Shown: in pieces, positions 46,249-64,000 of the stretch | Layout: each line of letters starts with the position of its first letter | Numbering within the stretch: the first letter of the stretch is position 1 | Source of the DNA: Pristiophorus japonicus | Taxonomy: Eukaryota | Reading direction: 5' to 3' | Assembly (NCBI RefSeq): GCF_044704955.1 | Contig: NC_091991.1 | Coordinates: 17,856,001 to 17,920,000 of the forward strand | Length of the DNA: 64,000 nucleotides | Made by a program: the position numbers and the translations under genes | The notes under the pieces: model-generated | Seen by the model: only the letters and a program-made list of their open reading frames with translations | Databases searched by the model: none | What the model was told of the DNA's origin: nothing

Positions 46249-47847
46249 GGGCTCAGGTTTCGGACCCCCGCTAGAACGGCGCGCATCGGAGAGGCCCGCC
46301 TAATTTGTAGAACAAAAATTGCGCCGAATACTTACCTCGCGATTCTCCGATATCTGTAGGCCCGTTTCCAGTTCGGCGCAGCAGGAGCTGCTGGGGGCGG
46401 AGCTACAGCCCTGCACCAAAATCAGTGCCGGCAGCTGCACGCGTGCGCAGTAGCTCCTGGCCCTCACAGCGCGTCCTGTCTCCGGGCGACGACCCTATCC
46501 CTGGCCGAAGGTACGTCGCCCCTATCCTGGGCCGAGTGGCCTGACACCTCGTCGGCGGCGGGGCCCGCCCGCCCGGCATGTTGCTGGGGCCGGCCCTGCC
46601 TGATGTCCACTGTGGCGGCCGGCGTCTTCGGCGGCAGCGGTGGGGCCCGTTCAGCCTTCCTCCCTCCTGTTCAGCAGCCCTCCCATTCAGCCCTCCTCTC
46701 TCCCCCTTCCCTCCCCCGTCCTCCCCCCTCCTCTCCCCCTCTTCCTCCTCTCCCCCTTCCCCCTCCTCTCCCCCTTCCTCCCCTCTCCTCGCCCCCTTCC
46801 CCCTCCTCTCCCCTCCCCCTCCCTCCCCCTCCTCTCCCCTTCCCCCTCCTCTCCCCCTCTCCCTCCTCTCCCCCTTCCCCCTCCTCTCCCCTCCCCCTCC
46901 CTCCCCCTCCCTCTCCCCTTCCCCCTCCTCTCCCCTCTCCCCCTCCTCTCCCCTTCCTCCCCCCTCCTCGCCCCCTTCCCCCTCCTCTCCCCCTCCTCTC
47001 TCCCCCTCCCTCTCCCCTCCTCCCTCCCTCTCCCCACCTTCTCTCCCCCCTCCCTGCCCCCTCCTCTCCTCCCCTCTCCTCCTCTCCTGCCTCCCCTCTC
47101 CCCTCTCCCTCCCCCTCCCTCCCCCTCCCCTCTCCCCCTTCCCTTCCCCCTCTCTCCCCCTCCTCCACCTCCTCTTTTCTACCCACTTCCCCCCTCTCTC
47201 CCCCCCCACTCCCCCTCTCTCCCCCCCAACCCCCCCCCCCCTCTCTCCTCCCACCCCTCACTGTCAGAAACACAGGGAGAGAGACACTGACAGAGACAGC
47301 GAGAGAGACACTGGGGGGGCCCTGTTCCAGCAAGCTGTTGGAGGGCTCCCGGAGCTGCAGTAAGTGAGTAGAAAGTTAATTTTTTATTTATTGATTGATT
47401 TTTTAAAAAATTTTAATTTTTAATTTTTACATTTTTTTGATTGATTTATTGGTTGATTTATTGATTTATTTATCATTTATTATTGATGATGGCTCTTTAT
47501 TTGTAAAAGTGAAGTGTTTAATGCTTGTAAACCTCCCCCCGCCCCCCCAATCTCTCGTTTCCTACGCCTGATTTATAAGTGTAGGCAATGTTTTTCTGAG
47601 CGTACAAAAATCTACACTTACTCCATTCGAAGTTAGTTTGGAGTAAGTTTTCGCGCCTAAACTTGCAAAACAGGTGTAAGTGGTTGGACACGCACCTTTT
47701 GAAAAAAAAGTCTGTTCTACAATGAAACTATTCTCACTCACTAGAACTAGAGCAAACTAAATGCCGAGAATTGCAATTTTTAAGATGCTCCATTCTAAAC
47801 TAGTTGCTCCAAAAAAATAGGAGCAACTCAGGCCGAAACTTGAGCCC
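46249..47847. mobile_element. Harbinger-type MITE with an expanded polypyrimidine core
   Basis: TIRs GGGCTCAGGTTTCGG / CCGAAACTTGAGCCC. TSD TAG at 46246-46248 and 47848-47850. Confidence 0.92.
46690..47260. repeat. About 570-bp near-pure C/T tract (CCCCTCCTCT-like units)
   Basis: Read directly from the sequence; very few purines. Confidence 0.97.
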
Positions 47848-48739: not shown

Positions 48740-51700
48740 GCCCCACGTGACGGAGAGGCGGGAGTGTGAGCAGCAGGGAGTCCGGGGAGGTCGGAGGCCT
48801 ACAAATGGCCCAGCTGGTGCAGCTGAAGCAGGGAGGCAAAAAGAAGTAGAAAGAAATCGAAAGGTGACATCACAGCCAAGGGGGTAAGTGATTGGCTGGT
48901 GATTGGTAAGTAGTTTTTCTTTTTCTTTTCTATATCAGTAAGTGACATTTCGCATTGTTGTTGCCAATTTAAGTTAATCTAAGGGTTAAGACATGGCAGG
49001 AGAGCTCGGACACGTGTGATGCTCCTCCTGTACTATGTGGGAAGTCAGGGACGCTTCCGGTGTCCCTGTCGACTACGTGTGCGGGAAGTGTGTCCACCTC
49101 CAGCTCCTGACGGACCGCATTGCGGCACTGGAACTGCGGGTGGATTCACTCTGGAGCATGCACGATGCTGAGAATGACGTGAATAGTACGTTTAGTGAGT
49201 TGGTCTCACTGCAGGTAAAGGGTACCCAGCCAGATAGTAAATGGGTGACCAACAGGAAGAGCAGTGGAAGGAAGGTAGTGCAGGGGTCCACTGCAGTCAT
49301 CCCCCTGCAAAACAGATACACCGCTTTGAGTACTGTTGAGGGGGACGACTCATTAGGGGAGGGCAGCAGTAGCCAAGTTCATGGCACTGTGGCTGGCTCT
49401 GCTGCACAGGAGGGCAGGAAAAAGATTGGGAGAGCTATAGTGATAGGGCATTCGATTGTAAGGGGAATAGATAGGCGTTTCTGCGGCCGCAACTGAGACT
49501 CCAGGATGGTATGTTGCCTCCCTGGTGCAAGGGTCAAGGATGTCTCGGAGCGGGTGCAGGACATTCTGAAATGGGAGGTTGAACAGCCAGTTGTCGTGGT
49601 GCACATAAGTACCAATGATATAGGTAAAAAAACGATATGAGGTCCTACGAGATGAATTTAGGGAGCTAGGAGCTAAATTAAAAAATAGGACCTCAAAAGT
49701 AGTAATCTCAGTATTGCTACCAGTGCCACGTGCTAGTCAGATTAGGAATTGCAGGATAGCTCAGATGAATACGTGGCTTGAGGAATGGTGCAAAAGGGAG
49801 GGATTCAAATTCCTGCGACATTGGAACCGGTTCTGGGGGAGGTGGGACCAGTACAAACCAGAAGGTCTGCACCTGGGCAGGACCGGAACCAATGTCCTGG
49901 TTGGAGTGTTTGCTAGTGCTGTTGGGGAGGAGTTAAACTAACATGGCAGGGGGATGGGAACCTATGCAGAGAGATAGAGGGAAATAAAATGGAGGCAGAA
50001 GCAAAAGATAGAAAGGAGAATAGTAAAAGTGGAGGGCAGAGAAACCCAAGGCAAAAAACAAAAAGAGCCACATTACAGCAACATTCTAAAGGGGCAAAGT
50101 GTGTTAAAAAGACAAGCCTGAAGGCTCTGTGCCTCAATACAAGGAGTATTCGGAATAAGGTGGATGAATTAACTGCGCAGACAGCAGTTAACGGATATGA
50201 TGTAATTGGCATCACAGAGATATGGCTCCAGCGTGACCAAGGCTGGCAACTCAACATGCAGGGGTATTCAACATTTAGGAAGGATAGGCAGAGAGGAAAA
50301 GCAGGCGGGGTGGCGTTGCTGGTTAAAGAGGAAATTAATGTAATAATAAGGAGGGACATTAGCCTGGAGGATGTGGAATCGGTATGGGTGGAGCTGCGGA
50401 ATACCAAAGGGCAGAAAACGCTAGTGGGAGTTGTGTACAGACCACCAAACAGTAGTAGTGAGTTTGGGGACAGCACCAAACAAGAAATAAGGGATGTGTG
50501 CAATAAAGGTACAGCAGTAATCATGGGCGACTTTAATCTACATATTGATTGGGCTAACCAAACTGGTAGTAATGCGGTGGAGGAGGATTTCCTGGAGTGT
50601 ATTAGGGATGGATTTCTCGAACAATATGTCGAGAAACCAAGTGGTGAGCTGGTCATCCTAGACTGGGTGATGTGTAATGAGAAGCGACTAATTAGCAATC
50701 TTGTTGTGCGAGGCCCCTTGGGGAAGAGTGACCATAATATGGTAGAATTCTTTATTAAGACGGAGAGTGACACAGTTAATTCGGAAACTAGGGTCCTGAA
50801 CTTAAGGAAAGGTAACTTCGACAGTATGGGGGGTGAATTGGCTAGAATAGACTGGCAGAGGATACTTAAAGGGTTGACGGTGGAGAAGCAATGGCAAACA
50901 TTTAAAGATCACATGGATGAACTTCAGCAATTGTACATCCCTGTCTGGAGTAAAAATATAATGGGGAAGGTGGCTCAACCGTGGCTAACAAGGAAATTAA
51001 GGATAGTGTTAAAACCAAGGAAGAGGCATATAAATTAGCCAGAAAAAGCAACAAACCTGAGGACTGGGAGAAATTTAGAATTCAACAGAGGAGGACTAAG
51101 GTTTAATTAAGAGGGGGGAAATAGAGTACGAGAGGAAGCTTGCAGGGAACATAAAAACTGACTGCAAAAGCTTCTATAAATATGTGAAGAGAAAAAGATT
51201 AGTGAAGACAAATGTAGGTCCCTTGCAGTCGGATTCAAGTGAATTTATAATGGGGAACAAAAAAATGGCAGACCAATTGAACAAATACTTCAGGTCTGTC
51301 TTCACGAAGGAAGACAAGAATAACCTTTCGAATGTACTAGAGGACAGTGGGTCTAATGAGAAGGAGGAACTGAAGGATATCCTTATCAGGCGGGAAACTG
51401 TGTTAGGGAAATTGATGGGATTAAAGGCCTATAAATCCCCAGGGCCTGATAGTCTGCATCCTAGAGTACTTAAGGAAGTAGCCCTAGAAATAGTGGATGC
51501 ATTGATGATCATTTTTCAACAGTCTATCGACTCTGGATCAGTTCCTATGGACTGGAGGGTAGCTAATGTAACACCACTTTTTAAAAACGGAGAGAGAGAG
51601 AAAAAGGGTAATTATCTACTGGTTAGCCTGACATCAGTGGTAGGGAAAATGTTGGAATCAATCATTAAGGATGAAATAGCAGTGCATTTGGAAAGCAGTG

Positions 51701-53322
51701 ACAGGATCGGTCCAAGTCAGCATAGATTTATGAAAGGGAAATCATGCTTGACGAATCTTCTGCAATTTTTTGAGGATGTAACTAGCAGAGTGGATAAGGG
51801 AGAACCAGTGGATGTGGTGTATTTGGACTTTCAAAAGGCTTTTGACAAGGTCCCGCACAAGAGATTGGTGTGCAAAGTCAAAGCTCATGGTATTGGGGGT
51901 AATGTACTGAAGTGGATAGAGAACTGGTTGGCAGACAGGAAGCAGAGAGTCAGGATAAACGGGTCCTTTTCAGAATGGCAGGCAGTGACTAGTGGAGTGC
52001 CGCAGGGCTCAGTGCTGGGACCCCAGCTCTTTACAATATACATTAACGATTTGGATGAAGGAATTAAATGTAATATCTCCAAGTTTGCAGATGATACTAA
52101 ACTGGTGGCAGTGTGAGCTGTGAGAGGGACGCTAAGAGGCTGCAGGGTGACTTGGACAGGTTAGGTGAGTGGGCAACTGCATGGCAGATGCAGTATAATG
52201 TGGATAAATGTGAGGTTATCCATTTTGGGGGCAAAAACACGAAGGCAGAATATTATCTGAATGGCGGCAGATTAGGAAAAGAGGAGGTGCAATGAGACCA
52301 GAGGTCACAGTCTAAGGATAAGGGGTAAGCCATTTAGGACCGAGATGCGGAGGAACTTCTTCACCCAGAGAGTGGTGAACCTGTGGAATTCTCTACCACA
52401 GAAAGTTGTTGAGGCCAATTCACTAAATATATTCAAAAAGGAGTTAGATGAGGTCCTTACTACTAGGGGGATCAAGGGGTATGGCGAGAAAGCAGGAATG
52501 GGGTACTGATGTTGAATGTTCAGCCATGAACTCATTGAATGGTGCAGGCTAGAAGGGCCGAATGGCCTACTCCTGCACCTATTTTCTATGTTTCTATGTT
52601 CCTATGTCATGGTTCATCAGTCATTGAAGGTTGGCATGCAGATACAGCAGGCAGTGAAGAAGGCAAATGGTATGTTGGCCTTCATAGCTAGGGGATTTGA
52701 GAATACGAGCAGGGAGGTCTTACTGCAGTTGCACAGGGCCTTAGTGAGGTCTCGCCTGGAATATTGTGTTCAGTTTTGGTCTCCTAATCTGAGGAAGGAC
52801 ATTCTTGCTATTGAGGGAGTGCAGCGAAAGTTCACCAGACTAATTCCAGGGATGGCTGGACTGTCATATGAGGAGAGACTGAATCAAATGGGCCTTTATT
52901 CACTGGAGTTTAGAAGGATGAGAGGGGATTTCATAGAAACATATAAGATTCTGACGGGACTGGACAGGTTAGATGTGGGAAGAATGTTCCCGATGTTGGG
53001 GAAATCCAGAACCAGGGGACATAGTCTTAGGATAAGGGATGGGCCATTTAGGACTGAGATGAGGAGAAACTTCTTCACTCAGAGAGCTGTTAACCTATGG
53101 AATTCCCTGCCGCAGAGAGTTGTTGATGCCAGTTCATTGGATATATTCAAGAGGGAGTTCGATATGGCCCTTACGGCTAAGGGGATCAAAGGGTATGGAG
53201 AGAAAGCAGGAAAAGGGTACTGAGGGAATGATCAGCCATGATCTTATTGAATGGCGATGCAGGCTTGAAGGGCCGAATGGCCTACTCCTGCACCTATTTT
53301 CTATGTTTCTATGTTTCTATGT
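48740..53322 (+). mobile_element. Near full-length CR1 LINE (5' UTR, ORF1, ORF2; inactivated)
   Basis: ORF1 at about 48993-49941 has a Cys motif (CSSC...CGKC) and an SGNH-esterase-like region (VIGHSIVR, CLPGA, VHISTND, GLHL). ORF2 has APE endonuclease (GITEIWL, MGDFN, SDHNMV) and RT ([25 protein letters not shown]). Ends in an 8-bp repeat tail. Confidence 0.96.
52300..52605 (+). mobile_element. CR1 3' fragment nested inside the long CR1
   Basis: The host jumps at GAGACC to RGHSLRIRG and a tail, then resumes at GTCATGG. Confidence 0.9.
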
Positions 53323-53499
53323 TAACCTCAGCTGCTTATTTGCCACTCTAGGCCGAGACCAGTTATTCGCAACCCTATCATCATCCCAGTTGAGGTCAGC
53401 TGACAGAACACACCAAGAACCAAATCTGGGACCTTCCCAGCCTGGAAAGGCTAATTGCAGGCTGGGGACTTGGGGGTAAGAATAGTTGAAGAAATCCCA

Positions 53500-54111: not shown

Positions 54112-55326
54112 AACAATAGTCTCCAGTGCCATCTGCTTACCATAAAATGCATGCAGCAAAATTTAGCTTTTTCTTTGTTTGTAACTTATAATACTATCAA
54201 TATTTTAAAATGCCCCTATTGTTAGAATATCTCCTGAAAACATATTTAAGATATAAACAGAAAAGGCTGGAAATACTCAGCAGGTCAGGCAGCATAGGCC
54301 TGAGACTTCTTTAGTGCAAACCGTATTAGCTGGACTTCCCCAATACTATACTTTAATCAGCGGCATAGACATTTTTGTGCATTATTTTGTTTCGTTTAAG
54401 TTTACTTCTCATTTATGGAGCTAGCCACACGACAGCTTGAACTACTTTAGGAATTTTTTTTTAAAGCATCTATTTACCCCCATTCATCTTCCCAGAGTGG
54501 CTGCGCCTGTTATGAATTAAGCATTGCCTGCGAACTGTGAATATGATGTGGTTTGCTTTTAAGACAATCAGAGACATTTCTGCATATCTGTGGAATGGAC
54601 ATCAAGTTGAGAAAGTTTTAAGTGTGTCAAGTGTCATCTAATTCTGCAGCAGCAGATGAGTCCTAAATTGCAAAGAGCCTTTCATTGCAAAATATGCTAA
54701 AAGAAACGGTGCCTATATCTAAAAAAATAAGAATATGTAACAGGAAACGAGATGATAGAGAAAGAAATAAATGGGGCCAAATCGCACTGTGCAATATTAG
54801 CATGCAAATATATTCATAGATTTGTGTGAAATTCCTTTGTCTGCCAGTTTAAGGGGAGCTTTAACCGATTTATTTTAAATTCTTTCATTAAAATGGCAAC
54901 TAAAGACATTTTACAAAGGTAAATGAATGCATTTGTAACCTGATATTGCACAGCAGATGATTTCAAAACACAATGGGGGAAAAATTCTGTTGTGCCCCGC
55001 TTGTGGGCGGTAATACTCGCCAGGCGTGGGACTTTGCACGAGGCACAGAAGTCCCGCCTCTTGCGAGAAATTGGGGTTACCACCCTCGAAAGGAAGTGGA
55101 GTGCAAAATAACAAGCTCTACTTCCTGTCTGGGGCAGTACTGGGGCGGACAGTTGGGGATTGGGGCGCTCGACTCAGCAGTGCTCGCACTGGGCTGTATA
55201 GCGCTGCCGGATAGGAGGGGCTCATCCCGGAATTAAAGGGAAGGGCACAAGCTGCATACTCTACATTATAAAAAGGGTTCTACCTGCACCACCGGGGAGC
55301 GCGGATGCCCCGCGATCAGTCCGGTA

Positions 55327-55743
55327 CTAACCCTGACCATAACTCTAACTCTAACTCGAACCTTAACCCTAACCCTAACCAGAACGCGAACCCGAACCCT
55401 AACACTAACTCTAACTCTAACTCTAATTCTAACCCTAACCCTAACCCTAACCCTAACTCTAACTTTAATTCTAACTCTAACTCTAACTCTAACCCTAACC
55501 CTTNNNNNNNNNNNNNNNNNNNNNNNNNNNNNNNNNNNNNNNNNNNNNNNNNNNNNNNNNNNNNNNNNNNNNNNNNNNNNNNNNNNNNNNNNNNNNNNNN
55601 NNNNNNNNNNNNNNNNNNNNNNNNNNNNNNNNNNNNNNNNNNNNNNNNNNNNNNNNNNNNNCCTAACACTAACGCTAACCCTAACCCTAACTATAACTCT
55701 AACCCTAACCCCAACCCTATCTCTAACCCTAACCCTAACCCTA
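55327..55743. repeat. Degenerate telomere-like (CCCTAA/CTCTAA)n array spanning an assembly gap
   Basis: Hexamers CCCTAA, CTCTAA, CCCGAA and CACTAA on both sides of the N run. Confidence 0.92.
55504..55661. other. Assembly gap (158 N)
   Basis: Run of N. Confidence 1.
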
Positions 55744-56549
55744 GGTGAGTGGACAAATGCATGGCAGATGCAGTATAATGTGGATAAGTGTGAGGTTATC
55801 CACTTTGGTGGCAAAAACAGAAGGCAGATTATTACCTGAATGGTACATTAGTCATTGAAAGTAGGCATGCAGGTACAGCAGGCAGTTAAGAAAGCAAATG
55901 GCATGTTGGCCTTCATAGCGAGAGGATTTGACTATAGGAACAGGGAGGTCTTGCTGCAGTTGTACAGGGCCTTGGTGAGACCACAACTTGAGTATTGTGT
56001 GCAATTTTGGTCTCCTAATCTGAGGAAGGACATTCTTGCTATTGAGGGAGTGCAGCGAAGGTTCACCAGACTGATTCCCGGGATGGCAGGACTGACATAT
56101 GAGGAAAGACTGGATCGACTAGGCTTATATTCACTGGAATTTAGAAGAATGAGAGGGGATCTCATAGAAGCATATAAAATTCTGATGGGATTGGACAGGT
56201 TAGATGCAGGAAGAATGTTCCCTATGTTGGGAAAGTCCAGAACCAGGGATCACAGTCTAAGAATAACGGGTAAGCCATATAGGACCGAGATGAGGAGAAA
56301 CTTTTTCACCCAGAGAATTGTGAACCTGTGGAATTCTCTGCCACAGAAAGTTGTTGAGTCCAGTTCGTTGGATATATTCAAAAGGGAGTTAGATGTGGCC
56401 CTTACAGCTAAAGGGATCAGGGGGTATGGAGAGAAGGCAGGAGCGGGGTACTGAAGTTGCATGATCAGCCATGATCATATTGAATGGTGGTGCAGGCTCG
56501 AAGGGCCGAATGGCCTGCTCCTGCACCTATTTTCTATGTTTTTCTATTT
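55742..56549 (+). mobile_element. CR1 3' fragment
   Basis: Starts TAGGTGAGTGG. ORF 55855-56454 and a TTTTCTATG tail. Confidence 0.95.
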
Positions 56550-57484
56550 TAACCCTACTCAAGCAGAGTGCCGGGCTGACCGATCGTGGCATGGACCTCG
56601 TGTCCAAAGTGGCAATGGGGCGCACAAGAAAAATGCACATCGCAGCCAGCCACCTCCCCTTTAACTTTCGCCCCGCTAGCAGCCAGCCGCCCGGTACGCG
56701 TCCCCTGTCGCTGGCATCGCCCGCCACAGCTTCAGGGGGCGATACCCAATTTAGGGTCCGAGATACTAACTGGGCGCTGCGCACGGCGATCTCCGGGCGC
56801 AGGAAATCGGGGCACAATGCCGCTAAAGACCCGCCAAATTTCGGGGGAGTTGTGAGCAGGGCTGCGCCCAGTCACAAAGTCGTTCGTGCCCCGTTAGCAC
56901 GGAGGCGCAAATGACCCGAATTTACCCCCCCACCCCCCCCCGCCCTCCCCCAGTGTCTACAGAATAAACAAAGTATTTAAACAGCGATTTAAAGAAAAAT
57001 TATATATATAATACAGAAAATGTGAGAAGTGTAGGGTCGGTCAGCTTCTGAAGGAGGGATGTTTCAAAAGAAACACTGAAGAAATTCCTTTCGCCAAAAC
57101 CGATTACAGTGCTTGAAATGGGAACTTCACTTTGTTGTCTGGATAAATTGCATCAGATTGTCTTTGAAGTTAAATGGAGTTTGTTAAAAACCCTTGATCA
57201 ACCAGGATAATGGAGAAGGAGCTTTCACCCTGTAAATAATGGAATTCCACCTCCTTGAAATTACCTACTGGTTCTCCTCATAATTACAATGGTTTTCTAT
57301 AAAATTATAATACGGAATAAAATCACAATAAATTATAATATATTCAAAACGTAATACAACAACTGAATGAAGTGTAGCATAACAAATGAATAAAATGCAA
57401 TGTATTGTTCAATGGAAAGTGTAATCGGACGGGATACAAAACAGGCAGCTGATCCGATCCGGTCTGTTTGCCACTGGGCAGGTT

Positions 57485-58064
57485 CATCATCATCATAGGC
57501 AGTCCCTCGGAACCGAGGAAGACTAGCTTCCACTCTAAACATGTCCTTAGGTGGCTGAACAGTCTAATACGAGAGCCACAGTCCCTGGCACAGGTGGGAC
57601 AGATAGTCGTTGAGGGAAAGGGAGGGTGGGACTGGTTTGCCGCATGCTCTTTCCGCTGCTGCGCTTGATTTCTGCATGCTCTCGGCGATGAGACTCAAGG
57701 TGCTCAGCGCCCTCCCGGATGCACTTCCCCCACTTAGGGCGGTCTTTGGCCAGGGACTCCCAGGTGTCATTGGGGATGTTGCACTTTATCAGGGAGGCTT
57801 TGAGGGTGTCCTTGTAACGTTTCCTCTGCCCACCTTTGGTTCATTTGCCATGAAGGAGTTCCAAGTAGAGCGCTTGCTTTGGGAGTCTCGTGTCAGGCAT
57901 GCAAACAGTGTGGCCCGCCCAGCGGAGCTGATCAAGTGTGGTCAGTGCTTCAATGCTGGGGATGTTGGCCTGGTCGAGGACGCTAATGTTGGTGCGTCTG
58001 TCCTCCCAGGGGGATTTGCAGGAACTTGCGGAGACATCGTTGGTGGTATTTCTCCAGCGACTTG
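57485..58064 (-). mobile_element. RTE LINE 3' end
   Basis: Minus strand KRYKDTLKASLIKCNIP..TWESLAKDRPKW, and tail GAGGGACTGCCTA(TGA)n. Confidence 0.9.
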
Positions 58065-62720: not shown

Positions 62721-62989
62721 GCCGATGGTAATTAGAAGCAGAGGGGGAAAATTCATCATGTGCAGTAGTGCAAACCAGGCGATAGTGAATCGACAGTCTG
62801 TTTCACACTACAGCCACAATTTTTCCCATTGACTTCAATGAAAAGTGCAAAACCCCTTACCAATTTTTTATTGCCCCTTTTGAACTTCCGCCCAAGACAG
62901 ATTACACCCCCAGAATGCCCCTGTCAGAAAGAACCTAATTCTCTCAACATAATACTAACAACTGCAAACTACTTGCTTGGCATATCTTT

Positions 62990-64000
62990 GTCATGTGTGG
63001 CTTATTTGTCCGGTACCATTCTTATCTATCTAATCATAGCCAGAAAATCACTTGCAATGGCTTCTCTTCCCCCCCCCCCCCCCCCCCAACGTGTCATTAC
63101 CTCTGGTGTCCCGCAAGGATCTATCCTTGGGCCCCTCCCATACCTCATCGACACGCTGCCCCTTGGCGATGTCATCCAGAAACACAGCGTCAGTTTCCAC
63201 ATGTACGCTGATGACACCCAGCTCTACCTCACTACCACTTCTCTCGACCCCTCCACAGTATCTAAATTGTCAGACTGCTTGTCCGACATCCATTGCTGGA
63301 TGAGCAGAAATTTTCTCCAATTGATAATATTGGGAAGACCGAAGTCATTGTTTTTGGTCCTCGCCACAAACTCCGTTCCCTAGCCATTGACTCCATCCCT
63401 CTCCCCAACTCCTGTCTCAGGCAGAACCAGACTGTTCGCAAACTTGGTGTCATATTTGACCCTGAAATGAGCTTTCGATCACATATCCGCAGCATAACTA
63501 AAACCGCCTATTTCCGTAACATCGCCCGTCTCTGCCCTTGCCTCAGCTCATCCGCTGTCGAAGCCCTCATCTGTGCTTTGTTACCTCTAGACTTGACTAT
63601 TCCAATGCACTCCTGGCTGGTCTCCCACATTCTACCCTACGTAAACTAGAGGTCATCTAAAACTCGGCTGCCCGTGTCCTAACTCGCATCAAGTCCCGCT
63701 CACCCATCACCCTGTGCTCATTAGCCTACATTGACTTCCGGTTAAGCAACACCTCGATTTTAAAATTCTCATCCTTATTTTCAAATCCCTCCATGGTCTC
63801 TCCCCTCCCTATCTCTGTAATCTCTTCCAGCCCCACCATCCCCGAGATGTCTGCGCTCCTCTAATTCTGCTCTCCTGAGCATTCCATTTGTAATCGCTCA
63901 GCCATTGGTGGCCGTGCCTTCTGTTGCCTCGGCCCCAAGCTCTGGAACACCCTGCCTAAACCGCTCTGCCTCTCTACCTCTCTTTCCTCCTTCAAGATGC
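62990..64000 (+). mobile_element. L2-clade LINE RT and C-terminal region
   Basis: SGVPQGSILGP, FHMYADDTQLY, LSDIHCWMSRNFLQL, NIGKTEVIVFG, LGVIFD, HITLCS, GGRAF...PKLWNTLP. Confidence 0.92.

Follow-up and report, generated by a model that had tools for sequence, protein, structure and literature searches.

The locus described here lies in a 64-kb window (the whole stretch of DNA that was analysed) and runs from a GC-rich repeat arm through a (TAACCC)n-like array, a 5′-truncated CR1 LINE and the motif TAACCCTA into a multi-copy arm. Probably, though by no means firmly, this order arose when an ordinary CR1 insertion hit the final unit of a telomere-like microsatellite that a MITE-like element already contained. 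The layout is real and probably ordinary, and the locus works like a standard truncated CR1 insertion beside an ITS-like microsatellite. A target-site duplication (TSD), a junction microhomology and a slippage signature are observed, while the pre-existence of the tract, which we infer, is likely.

The left arm (54975..55327, 57% GC), part of a putative non-autonomous MITE-like DNA element with a TIR-like end at 54975-54987, meets the array at CCGGTAC-TAACCCT (55321-55334). The degenerate (TAACCC/TAACTC)n array lies on the plus strand; its left part (55328..55503) has 29 units, 9 of them perfect, and its right part (55662..55743) has 13 full units, 7 of them perfect, ending in a TA that is common to CR1. 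Between the two parts the array crosses a gap of 158 N (55504..55661), as the sequence-only reading had cautioned. The left copy of TAACCCTA (55736..55743, plus strand) is a TSD candidate, and CR1 (55742..56549, plus strand), which comprises the ORF2 end, 3′ UTR and tail, begins straight after the array with TAGGTGAGTGG at 55742. Its tail ends at 56549 and is followed by TAACCCT-ACTC, that is, by the right copy of TAACCCTA (56550..56557, plus strand) with CTC next to it, which equals TAACCC-TACTC and resembles two array units. The right arm (56558..56930, 62% GC, multi-copy) then extends to a TIR-like end at 56918-56930. On the minus strand, CCACTCACCTA continues in register into GGGTTA. Over 55320-56560 the letters agree with the sequence-only reading.

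The longest direct repeat shared with the right flank is TAACCCTA itself, 8 nt long (55736-55743 and 56550-56557) and placed directly around CR1, and it supports an ordinary insertion because the pairing proposed earlier, with a left copy at 55328, matches the right flank over 7 nt. That the array is enclosed in a TAACCCT duplication, as claimed earlier, is thus one interpretation and not something observed, because any array unit could be the left copy. The advantage of 8 over 7 nt rests on one base, and since every array unit matches and a single A-to-G change at 55335 would bring an 8-nt match there too, the junctions alone do not settle which left copy is the true one. An ordinary TSD may lie immediately around CR1, with the array outside it. 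This candidate measures 5 nt without the junction microhomologies and up to 8 nt when they are counted in; for CR1/L2 the commonest TSD lengths are 3-5 bp, and those of ZfL2-1 range over 1-8 bp (PMC4245944). The sister copies within the window read GGTTAGGTGAG across the junction position, and the TA at 55742-55743 can therefore be assigned to the LINE just as well as to the array. This shared TA is a normal 5′ microhomology, and microhomology of 1-2 bp is found in about half of zebrafish LINE integrants (PMC4760211). Bases in register with the repeat are the TA at the cDNA end and the TA before CTC in the right flank.

According to the reading that we prefer, the tract would already have been there, derived from the element family or from an earlier telomeric insertion in this copy, and it may have been short. 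The CR1 endonuclease would have nicked the G-rich strand, with the cDNA primed from an end reading TAGGGTTA; the truncated cDNA end would then have used TA to anneal with the staggered end of the top strand, which would produce a duplication of 5-8 nt, and replication slippage would have spread variants such as TAACTC along the left tract, both before and after the insertion. Precedents in PMC8537989 are ITSs inside transposons and the later entry of a SINE into an ITS. The variant-like unit TACTC after the right copy of TAACCCTA favours an existing tract as well, but this argument is post hoc and weak. Against an existing tract stands the tail side of CR1, which holds one array unit, perhaps two, an outcome that random insertion in ~69 units gives in ~1.5-3% of cases. 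Because of these 1-2 units, the existing-tract model requires either good fortune or a tract with few units when CR1 inserted.

The array, which the sequence-only reading had called degenerate, is strongly so: 16 of its 42 units are the perfect TAACCC and 11 are TAACTC. TRF places the 6-bp unit at 55327-55502 (score 170) and 55662-55743 (score 108), and the window's 29 TRF rows contain no further array of this telomere-like unit. Measured against TAACCC, the array has mismatches at 34 of 252 sites (13.5%), vs 37 of 766 sites (4.8%) at which CR1 differs from the sister-copy majority (Fisher p=1e-5), and this favours a tract older than CR1; however, the argument from greater age is weakened because slippage may have copied variants, and in the 13 units adjoining CR1 the divergence (8/78 sites) is not significantly higher than that of CR1 (p=0.058). 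The TAACTC variant (11 units) is arranged in runs, which indicates slippage. Identical variant units neighbour each other 7 times vs 2.7 expected (p=0.003), and the mismatches across the three C positions number 2/20/5 (p=3e-5). There are only 10 distinct position/base changes in the array, and by our count ~12-14 mutation events vs ~12 expected at the CR1 rate. The array carries 0.81 mismatches per unit; in PMC2246262, mammalian ITSs have 0-0.14 when young and 0.29-0.40 when old, in a set pre-filtered to <1 mismatch per unit. When exact addition followed by independent mutation was simulated at CR1 rates, 0/20,000 runs yielded as many as 34 mismatches or as many as 11 units of a single variant, and at array-matched rates 40/20,000 reached 11 copies of one variant. 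Because this model fails, and given the 0.81 mismatches per unit, slippage shaped the array. The motif TAACCCT is found 28 times in the window vs 8.3 expected, a count that is inflated by an antisense motif near the 3′ end of other CR1 subfamilies; this motif partly accounts for the occurrences outside the array (315, 4431, 7075, 19267, 39038 and 53975).

Alternatively, the array may have begun as 5′ extra nucleotides at the joining step, without telomerase, a few units of which slippage later expanded and diversified, a route to which we give a modest but appreciable chance. The TAACCCTA overhang begins and ends with TA, so that a cDNA end (...CCTA-3′) could anneal, gain a hexamer, slip and repeat the cycle, with a repair polymerase or the CR1 RT as the enzyme. 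This route predicts the single tail-side unit, the orientation and the register, and it would let TAACTC derive, post hoc, from the local TAACCC-TACTC; in addition, ~100 nt from its 5′ end the focal CR1 has lost 47 nt between microhomologies. The array is nevertheless at least 258 bp long (416 bp if the gap is sized correctly), far above usual templated insertions, which measure tens of nucleotides. The route also requires a chance 8-mer target, and TAACCCTA is present only twice in the rest of the window, both strands counted. As for how common such additions are, 5′ extra nucleotides, largely templated by the flank, accompany about half of zebrafish L2 inserts (PMC4245944 and PMC4760211), and 14.6% of 5′-truncated human L1 copies carry them (PMC2912911).

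The sequence-only reading had instead proposed that telomerase, or an RT jump onto a C-rich telomeric template, extended the truncated cDNA with telomeric repeats (TTAGGG), which annealed to a target that was already telomere-like. Here the overhang would have happened to read TAACCCTA, and slippage would later have reshaped the array; we judge this improbable, although a small chance must be allowed for it. The orientation, the in-register TA at the cDNA 3′ end, the telomere-like target and the single unit on the tail side all fit, and perfect units are denser near CR1 (7/13 vs 9/29 in the left part, no significance having been computed). According to PMC2246262, in-register bases mark telomerase-type ITS insertions, some of which have TSDs, and TERC-ITS loci exist in a shark (PMC8537989). 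What does not stand is the addition of exact TTAGGG units followed by independent mutation, which the simulations above reject at CR1 rates and which even at array-matched rates seldom yields 11 copies of one variant. Near-exact TTAGGG units would be expected for a telomerase-made ITS of the age of CR1 and are not seen, the array having 34 mismatches vs ~12 expected at the CR1 rate, though later slippage could blur this. No telomerase-RNA match was found near the array with Rfam (54500-57700, E<=1), where short pieces or the 158 N could hide one, and the output consisted of 2 weak, unrelated, chance-level matches. Furthermore, telomeric hexamers adjoin 0/10 of the other CR1 5′ ends, a small sample, and the TA fit is common by chance, as 27% of CR1 positions would give a 2-nt fit to the repeat. 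The geometry is not decisive for telomerase, because an ordinary insertion with an adjacent TSD and TA microhomology gives the same junctions. The version that survives is a short addition followed by heavy slippage, and no finding points specifically to telomerase. Two related routes were rejected as well: an RT switch onto G-rich TERRA is excluded by the orientation of the array, since copying UUAGGG would place TTAGGG on the LINE sense strand, and telomere-primed insertion is contradicted by position and orientation, since it would put the array at the tail side. The slight probability that remains falls to further possibilities, among them slippage that started from nothing but the TSD copy. 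Expansion of a lone TSD copy with no seed tract had been named earlier as an alternative; we consider it unlikely, as it would start from ~1.3 units, which by general experience are too few for slippage.

The run of 158 N is the sole gap in the 64-kb window, and that it falls in the array, between arms that share no significant long inverted similarity, speaks for a scaffolding artefact, with the two sides of the N run coming from two repeat-bearing loci and the left arm and left array being unrelated to CR1. We regard such an artefact as very improbable. The unit, the orientation and the variants (TAACTC, TAACAC) are alike on both sides of the gap, TIR-like ends bracket the whole, and the length of the gap preserves the 6-bp register, which has a 1-in-6 probability by chance and gives weak support for contiguity of the array. 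In any case, 80 nt separate the gap from the array-CR1 junction, which is not touched by it.

In the ordinary insertion that we prefer, the inserted element is a common one. CR1 (55742-56549, plus strand) holds the end of ORF2, with its stop codon at 56452-56454, then the 3′ UTR and, from ~56530, a TTTCTATG-type tail, which in the focal and sister copies consists of short 8-bp repeats and not of poly(A). A search with the C-terminal part of ORF2 gave 1079 matches at E<=1e-10 among 1392 candidates. The best of them are 85-89% identical in amino acids, the named ones being ray and skate proteins from Leucoraja and Mobula, vs ~50% identity for bird and turtle matches. These identities suggest that the LINE is a CR1 and that its host is, in all probability, a cartilaginous fish. 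The domain PF00078 was found on longer protein matches, and Pfam alone gave 0 families on the C-terminal piece. We take the clade to be CR1 partly from general knowledge and partly from its protein relatives. CR1-like LINEs are reported to be major repeats of sharks (PMC1513397).

Comparison with the sister copies places the 5′ truncation of the focal CR1 at 55742 and reveals an internal deletion of 47 nt at ~55843 (55839-55844), flanked by a 5-nt ATGGT repeat; either the RT skipped these bases while CR1 was inserting, or they were lost afterwards through microhomology. The 11 CR1 copies examined, which are only some of the window's CR1 pieces, each had a tail and a definable 5′ end, although some of these ends may be later interruptions, and telomeric hexamers lie upstream of 1/11, the focal copy only. 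The 10 other copies have direct repeats of just 3-5 nt and lie in non-telomeric sites. A telomere-specific LINE was ruled out, with 1/11 of the CR1 copies examined in the window at telomeric repeats. Elsewhere in the window, a longer copy of the focal subfamily (51360-53327) is interrupted by a 310-nt CR1 3′ fragment with its own tail (~52297-52608), a CR1 nested in CR1; AACC follows the tail of the outer copy, as it does in the focal copy, probably by chance.

The sequence-only reading also held that a MITE resumes after CR1. The right arm is indeed multi-copy, but the inverted alignment of the two arms is no better than that of shuffled sequences, as 82/300 shuffles reach the best alignment and overall inverted similarity does not rise above them. 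The arms share a terminal inverted match of 11/13 (54975-54987 and 56918-56930) and one inner 13-nt match. Neither arm has a second copy within the window, no TSD was seen by eye at either end of the element, and left-arm folding is uninformative (z=-1.9). We infer from sequence that the left and right arms belong to one element, likely a single MITE. The right arm is present on >100 contigs at several positions, with a summed depth of 187 to 21,000 (bins of 56570-56921) vs 11.8 in the unique flank in run X1; its copy number was taken from contigs of two public runs of one sample over 56350-57650. The right flank is present in 4 public runs of one sample from one study, of which 2 were used. 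Beyond 56966 the flank is single-copy, with 0 differences over 720 nt in contigs, and because of this identity the runs may be the source sample and so not independent. Contig left ends at ~56556 (tracked at 56587-56610) could mean that family copies lack TAACCC there, but they were dropped as evidence, because a variable CpG site would produce the same signal if 31-mer contigs broke 30 nt ahead of it.

Searches for further copies were negative in the sets covered. The element motif had 0 matches in metagenomes, the CR1 tail motif had 0 in metagenome, prokaryote and viral contigs, and 0/58 candidates scored when other element copies were sought via spurious ORFs. A single match among 1.84 billion representatives, a bacterial-type repeat protein with 21-33% identity, was rejected as chance. 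The array-CR1 fusion peptide matched 0/5977 candidates, and a telomere-repeat translation appeared in 0 of the best 120 of 1079 CR1 proteins, a weak result as ORFs rarely cross the 5′ junction.

Some observations concern the surroundings of the arms. Contigs that jump from 56760 or 56676 to 56901 suggest shorter MITE-like family members with the right end in common. A very high-copy repeat, probably a SINE, begins at ~57484 (57484-57650), and many contigs among the matches listed link CR1 tails to it. A GGGGGAAAATTC start at 62743-62900, which resembles the left end of the element, opens a short A/T-richer element whose body is unrelated in sequence.

The arms recall MITEs of the PIF/Harbinger type, known from fish and amphibians, in their TIR style, as they have a short G-rich terminal inverted match, a GC-rich non-coding body and, for the right arm, many copies; unlike in those elements, no 3-bp TSD was found, and the unity of the arms is only putative. 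TRAS/SART elements and endonuclease-independent telomeric L1 have a long telomeric array on the tail side or on both sides and are target-specific. As in telomere-targeting retroelements, TPRT would here have been primed by a telomeric 3′ end rich in G, but unlike in TRAS/SART the array is on the 5′ side of CR1, and the 10 other CR1 copies examined lie in non-telomeric sites. With truncated CR1/L2 inserts, as described in PMC4245944 and PMC4760211, the focal copy shares the truncated 5′ end, the 2-nt microhomology, the short duplication and the short-repeat tail; it differs in its long telomere-like neighbour, whereas the extra nucleotides of those inserts are 'several', flank-templated and non-telomeric. 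Finally, the s-ITS/TERC-ITS loci of PMC2246262 and PMC8537989 likewise have an internal TTAGGG-type array with in-register junction bases, sometimes within a transposon, and one reported ITS was later struck by a SINE. Our array is much more degenerate than these, with 0.81 mismatches per unit and a dominant variant in runs, and no TERC fragment was detected here.

On the favoured explanation, a very abundant LINE has merely nested itself once in a microsatellite, and this matters little. An array made at the junction would instead represent a long 5′ extension, periodic in sequence, that a repair polymerase or telomerase produced from an overhang of 8 nt able to overlap itself. If the telomerase proposal were true, a truncated CR1 cDNA would have been handled as a broken chromosome end, and telomerase would act in the shark germ line as a host factor by which LINE 5′ junctions are rescued. 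The scar left by this could be counted across the genome, as CCCTAA arrays that lie within the TSD and solely at the 5′ side. The way in which truncated LINEs become joined at their 5′ end has been described as long debated (PMC2912911), and among titles and abstract openings of mostly non-subscription literature none was found to describe the addition of telomeric repeats where a LINE 5′ end joins its target; a case next to a LINE might be contained in the ITS tables of PMC2246262 and PMC8537989. Within that literature, a contribution of telomerase to a LINE 5′ junction would, if true, be a novelty, but it is not established by a single locus that is degenerate and gapped and that also has a simpler explanation. 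The locus does offer a precise query for counting such junctions in long-read shark genomes.

Two further features of the window were noted. A C/T-rich low-complexity array of ~540 nt occupies 46695-47236, with periods of 11, 21 and 78 nt, and 63090-64000 resembles, by eye, the 3′ part of a different, L2-type LINE.
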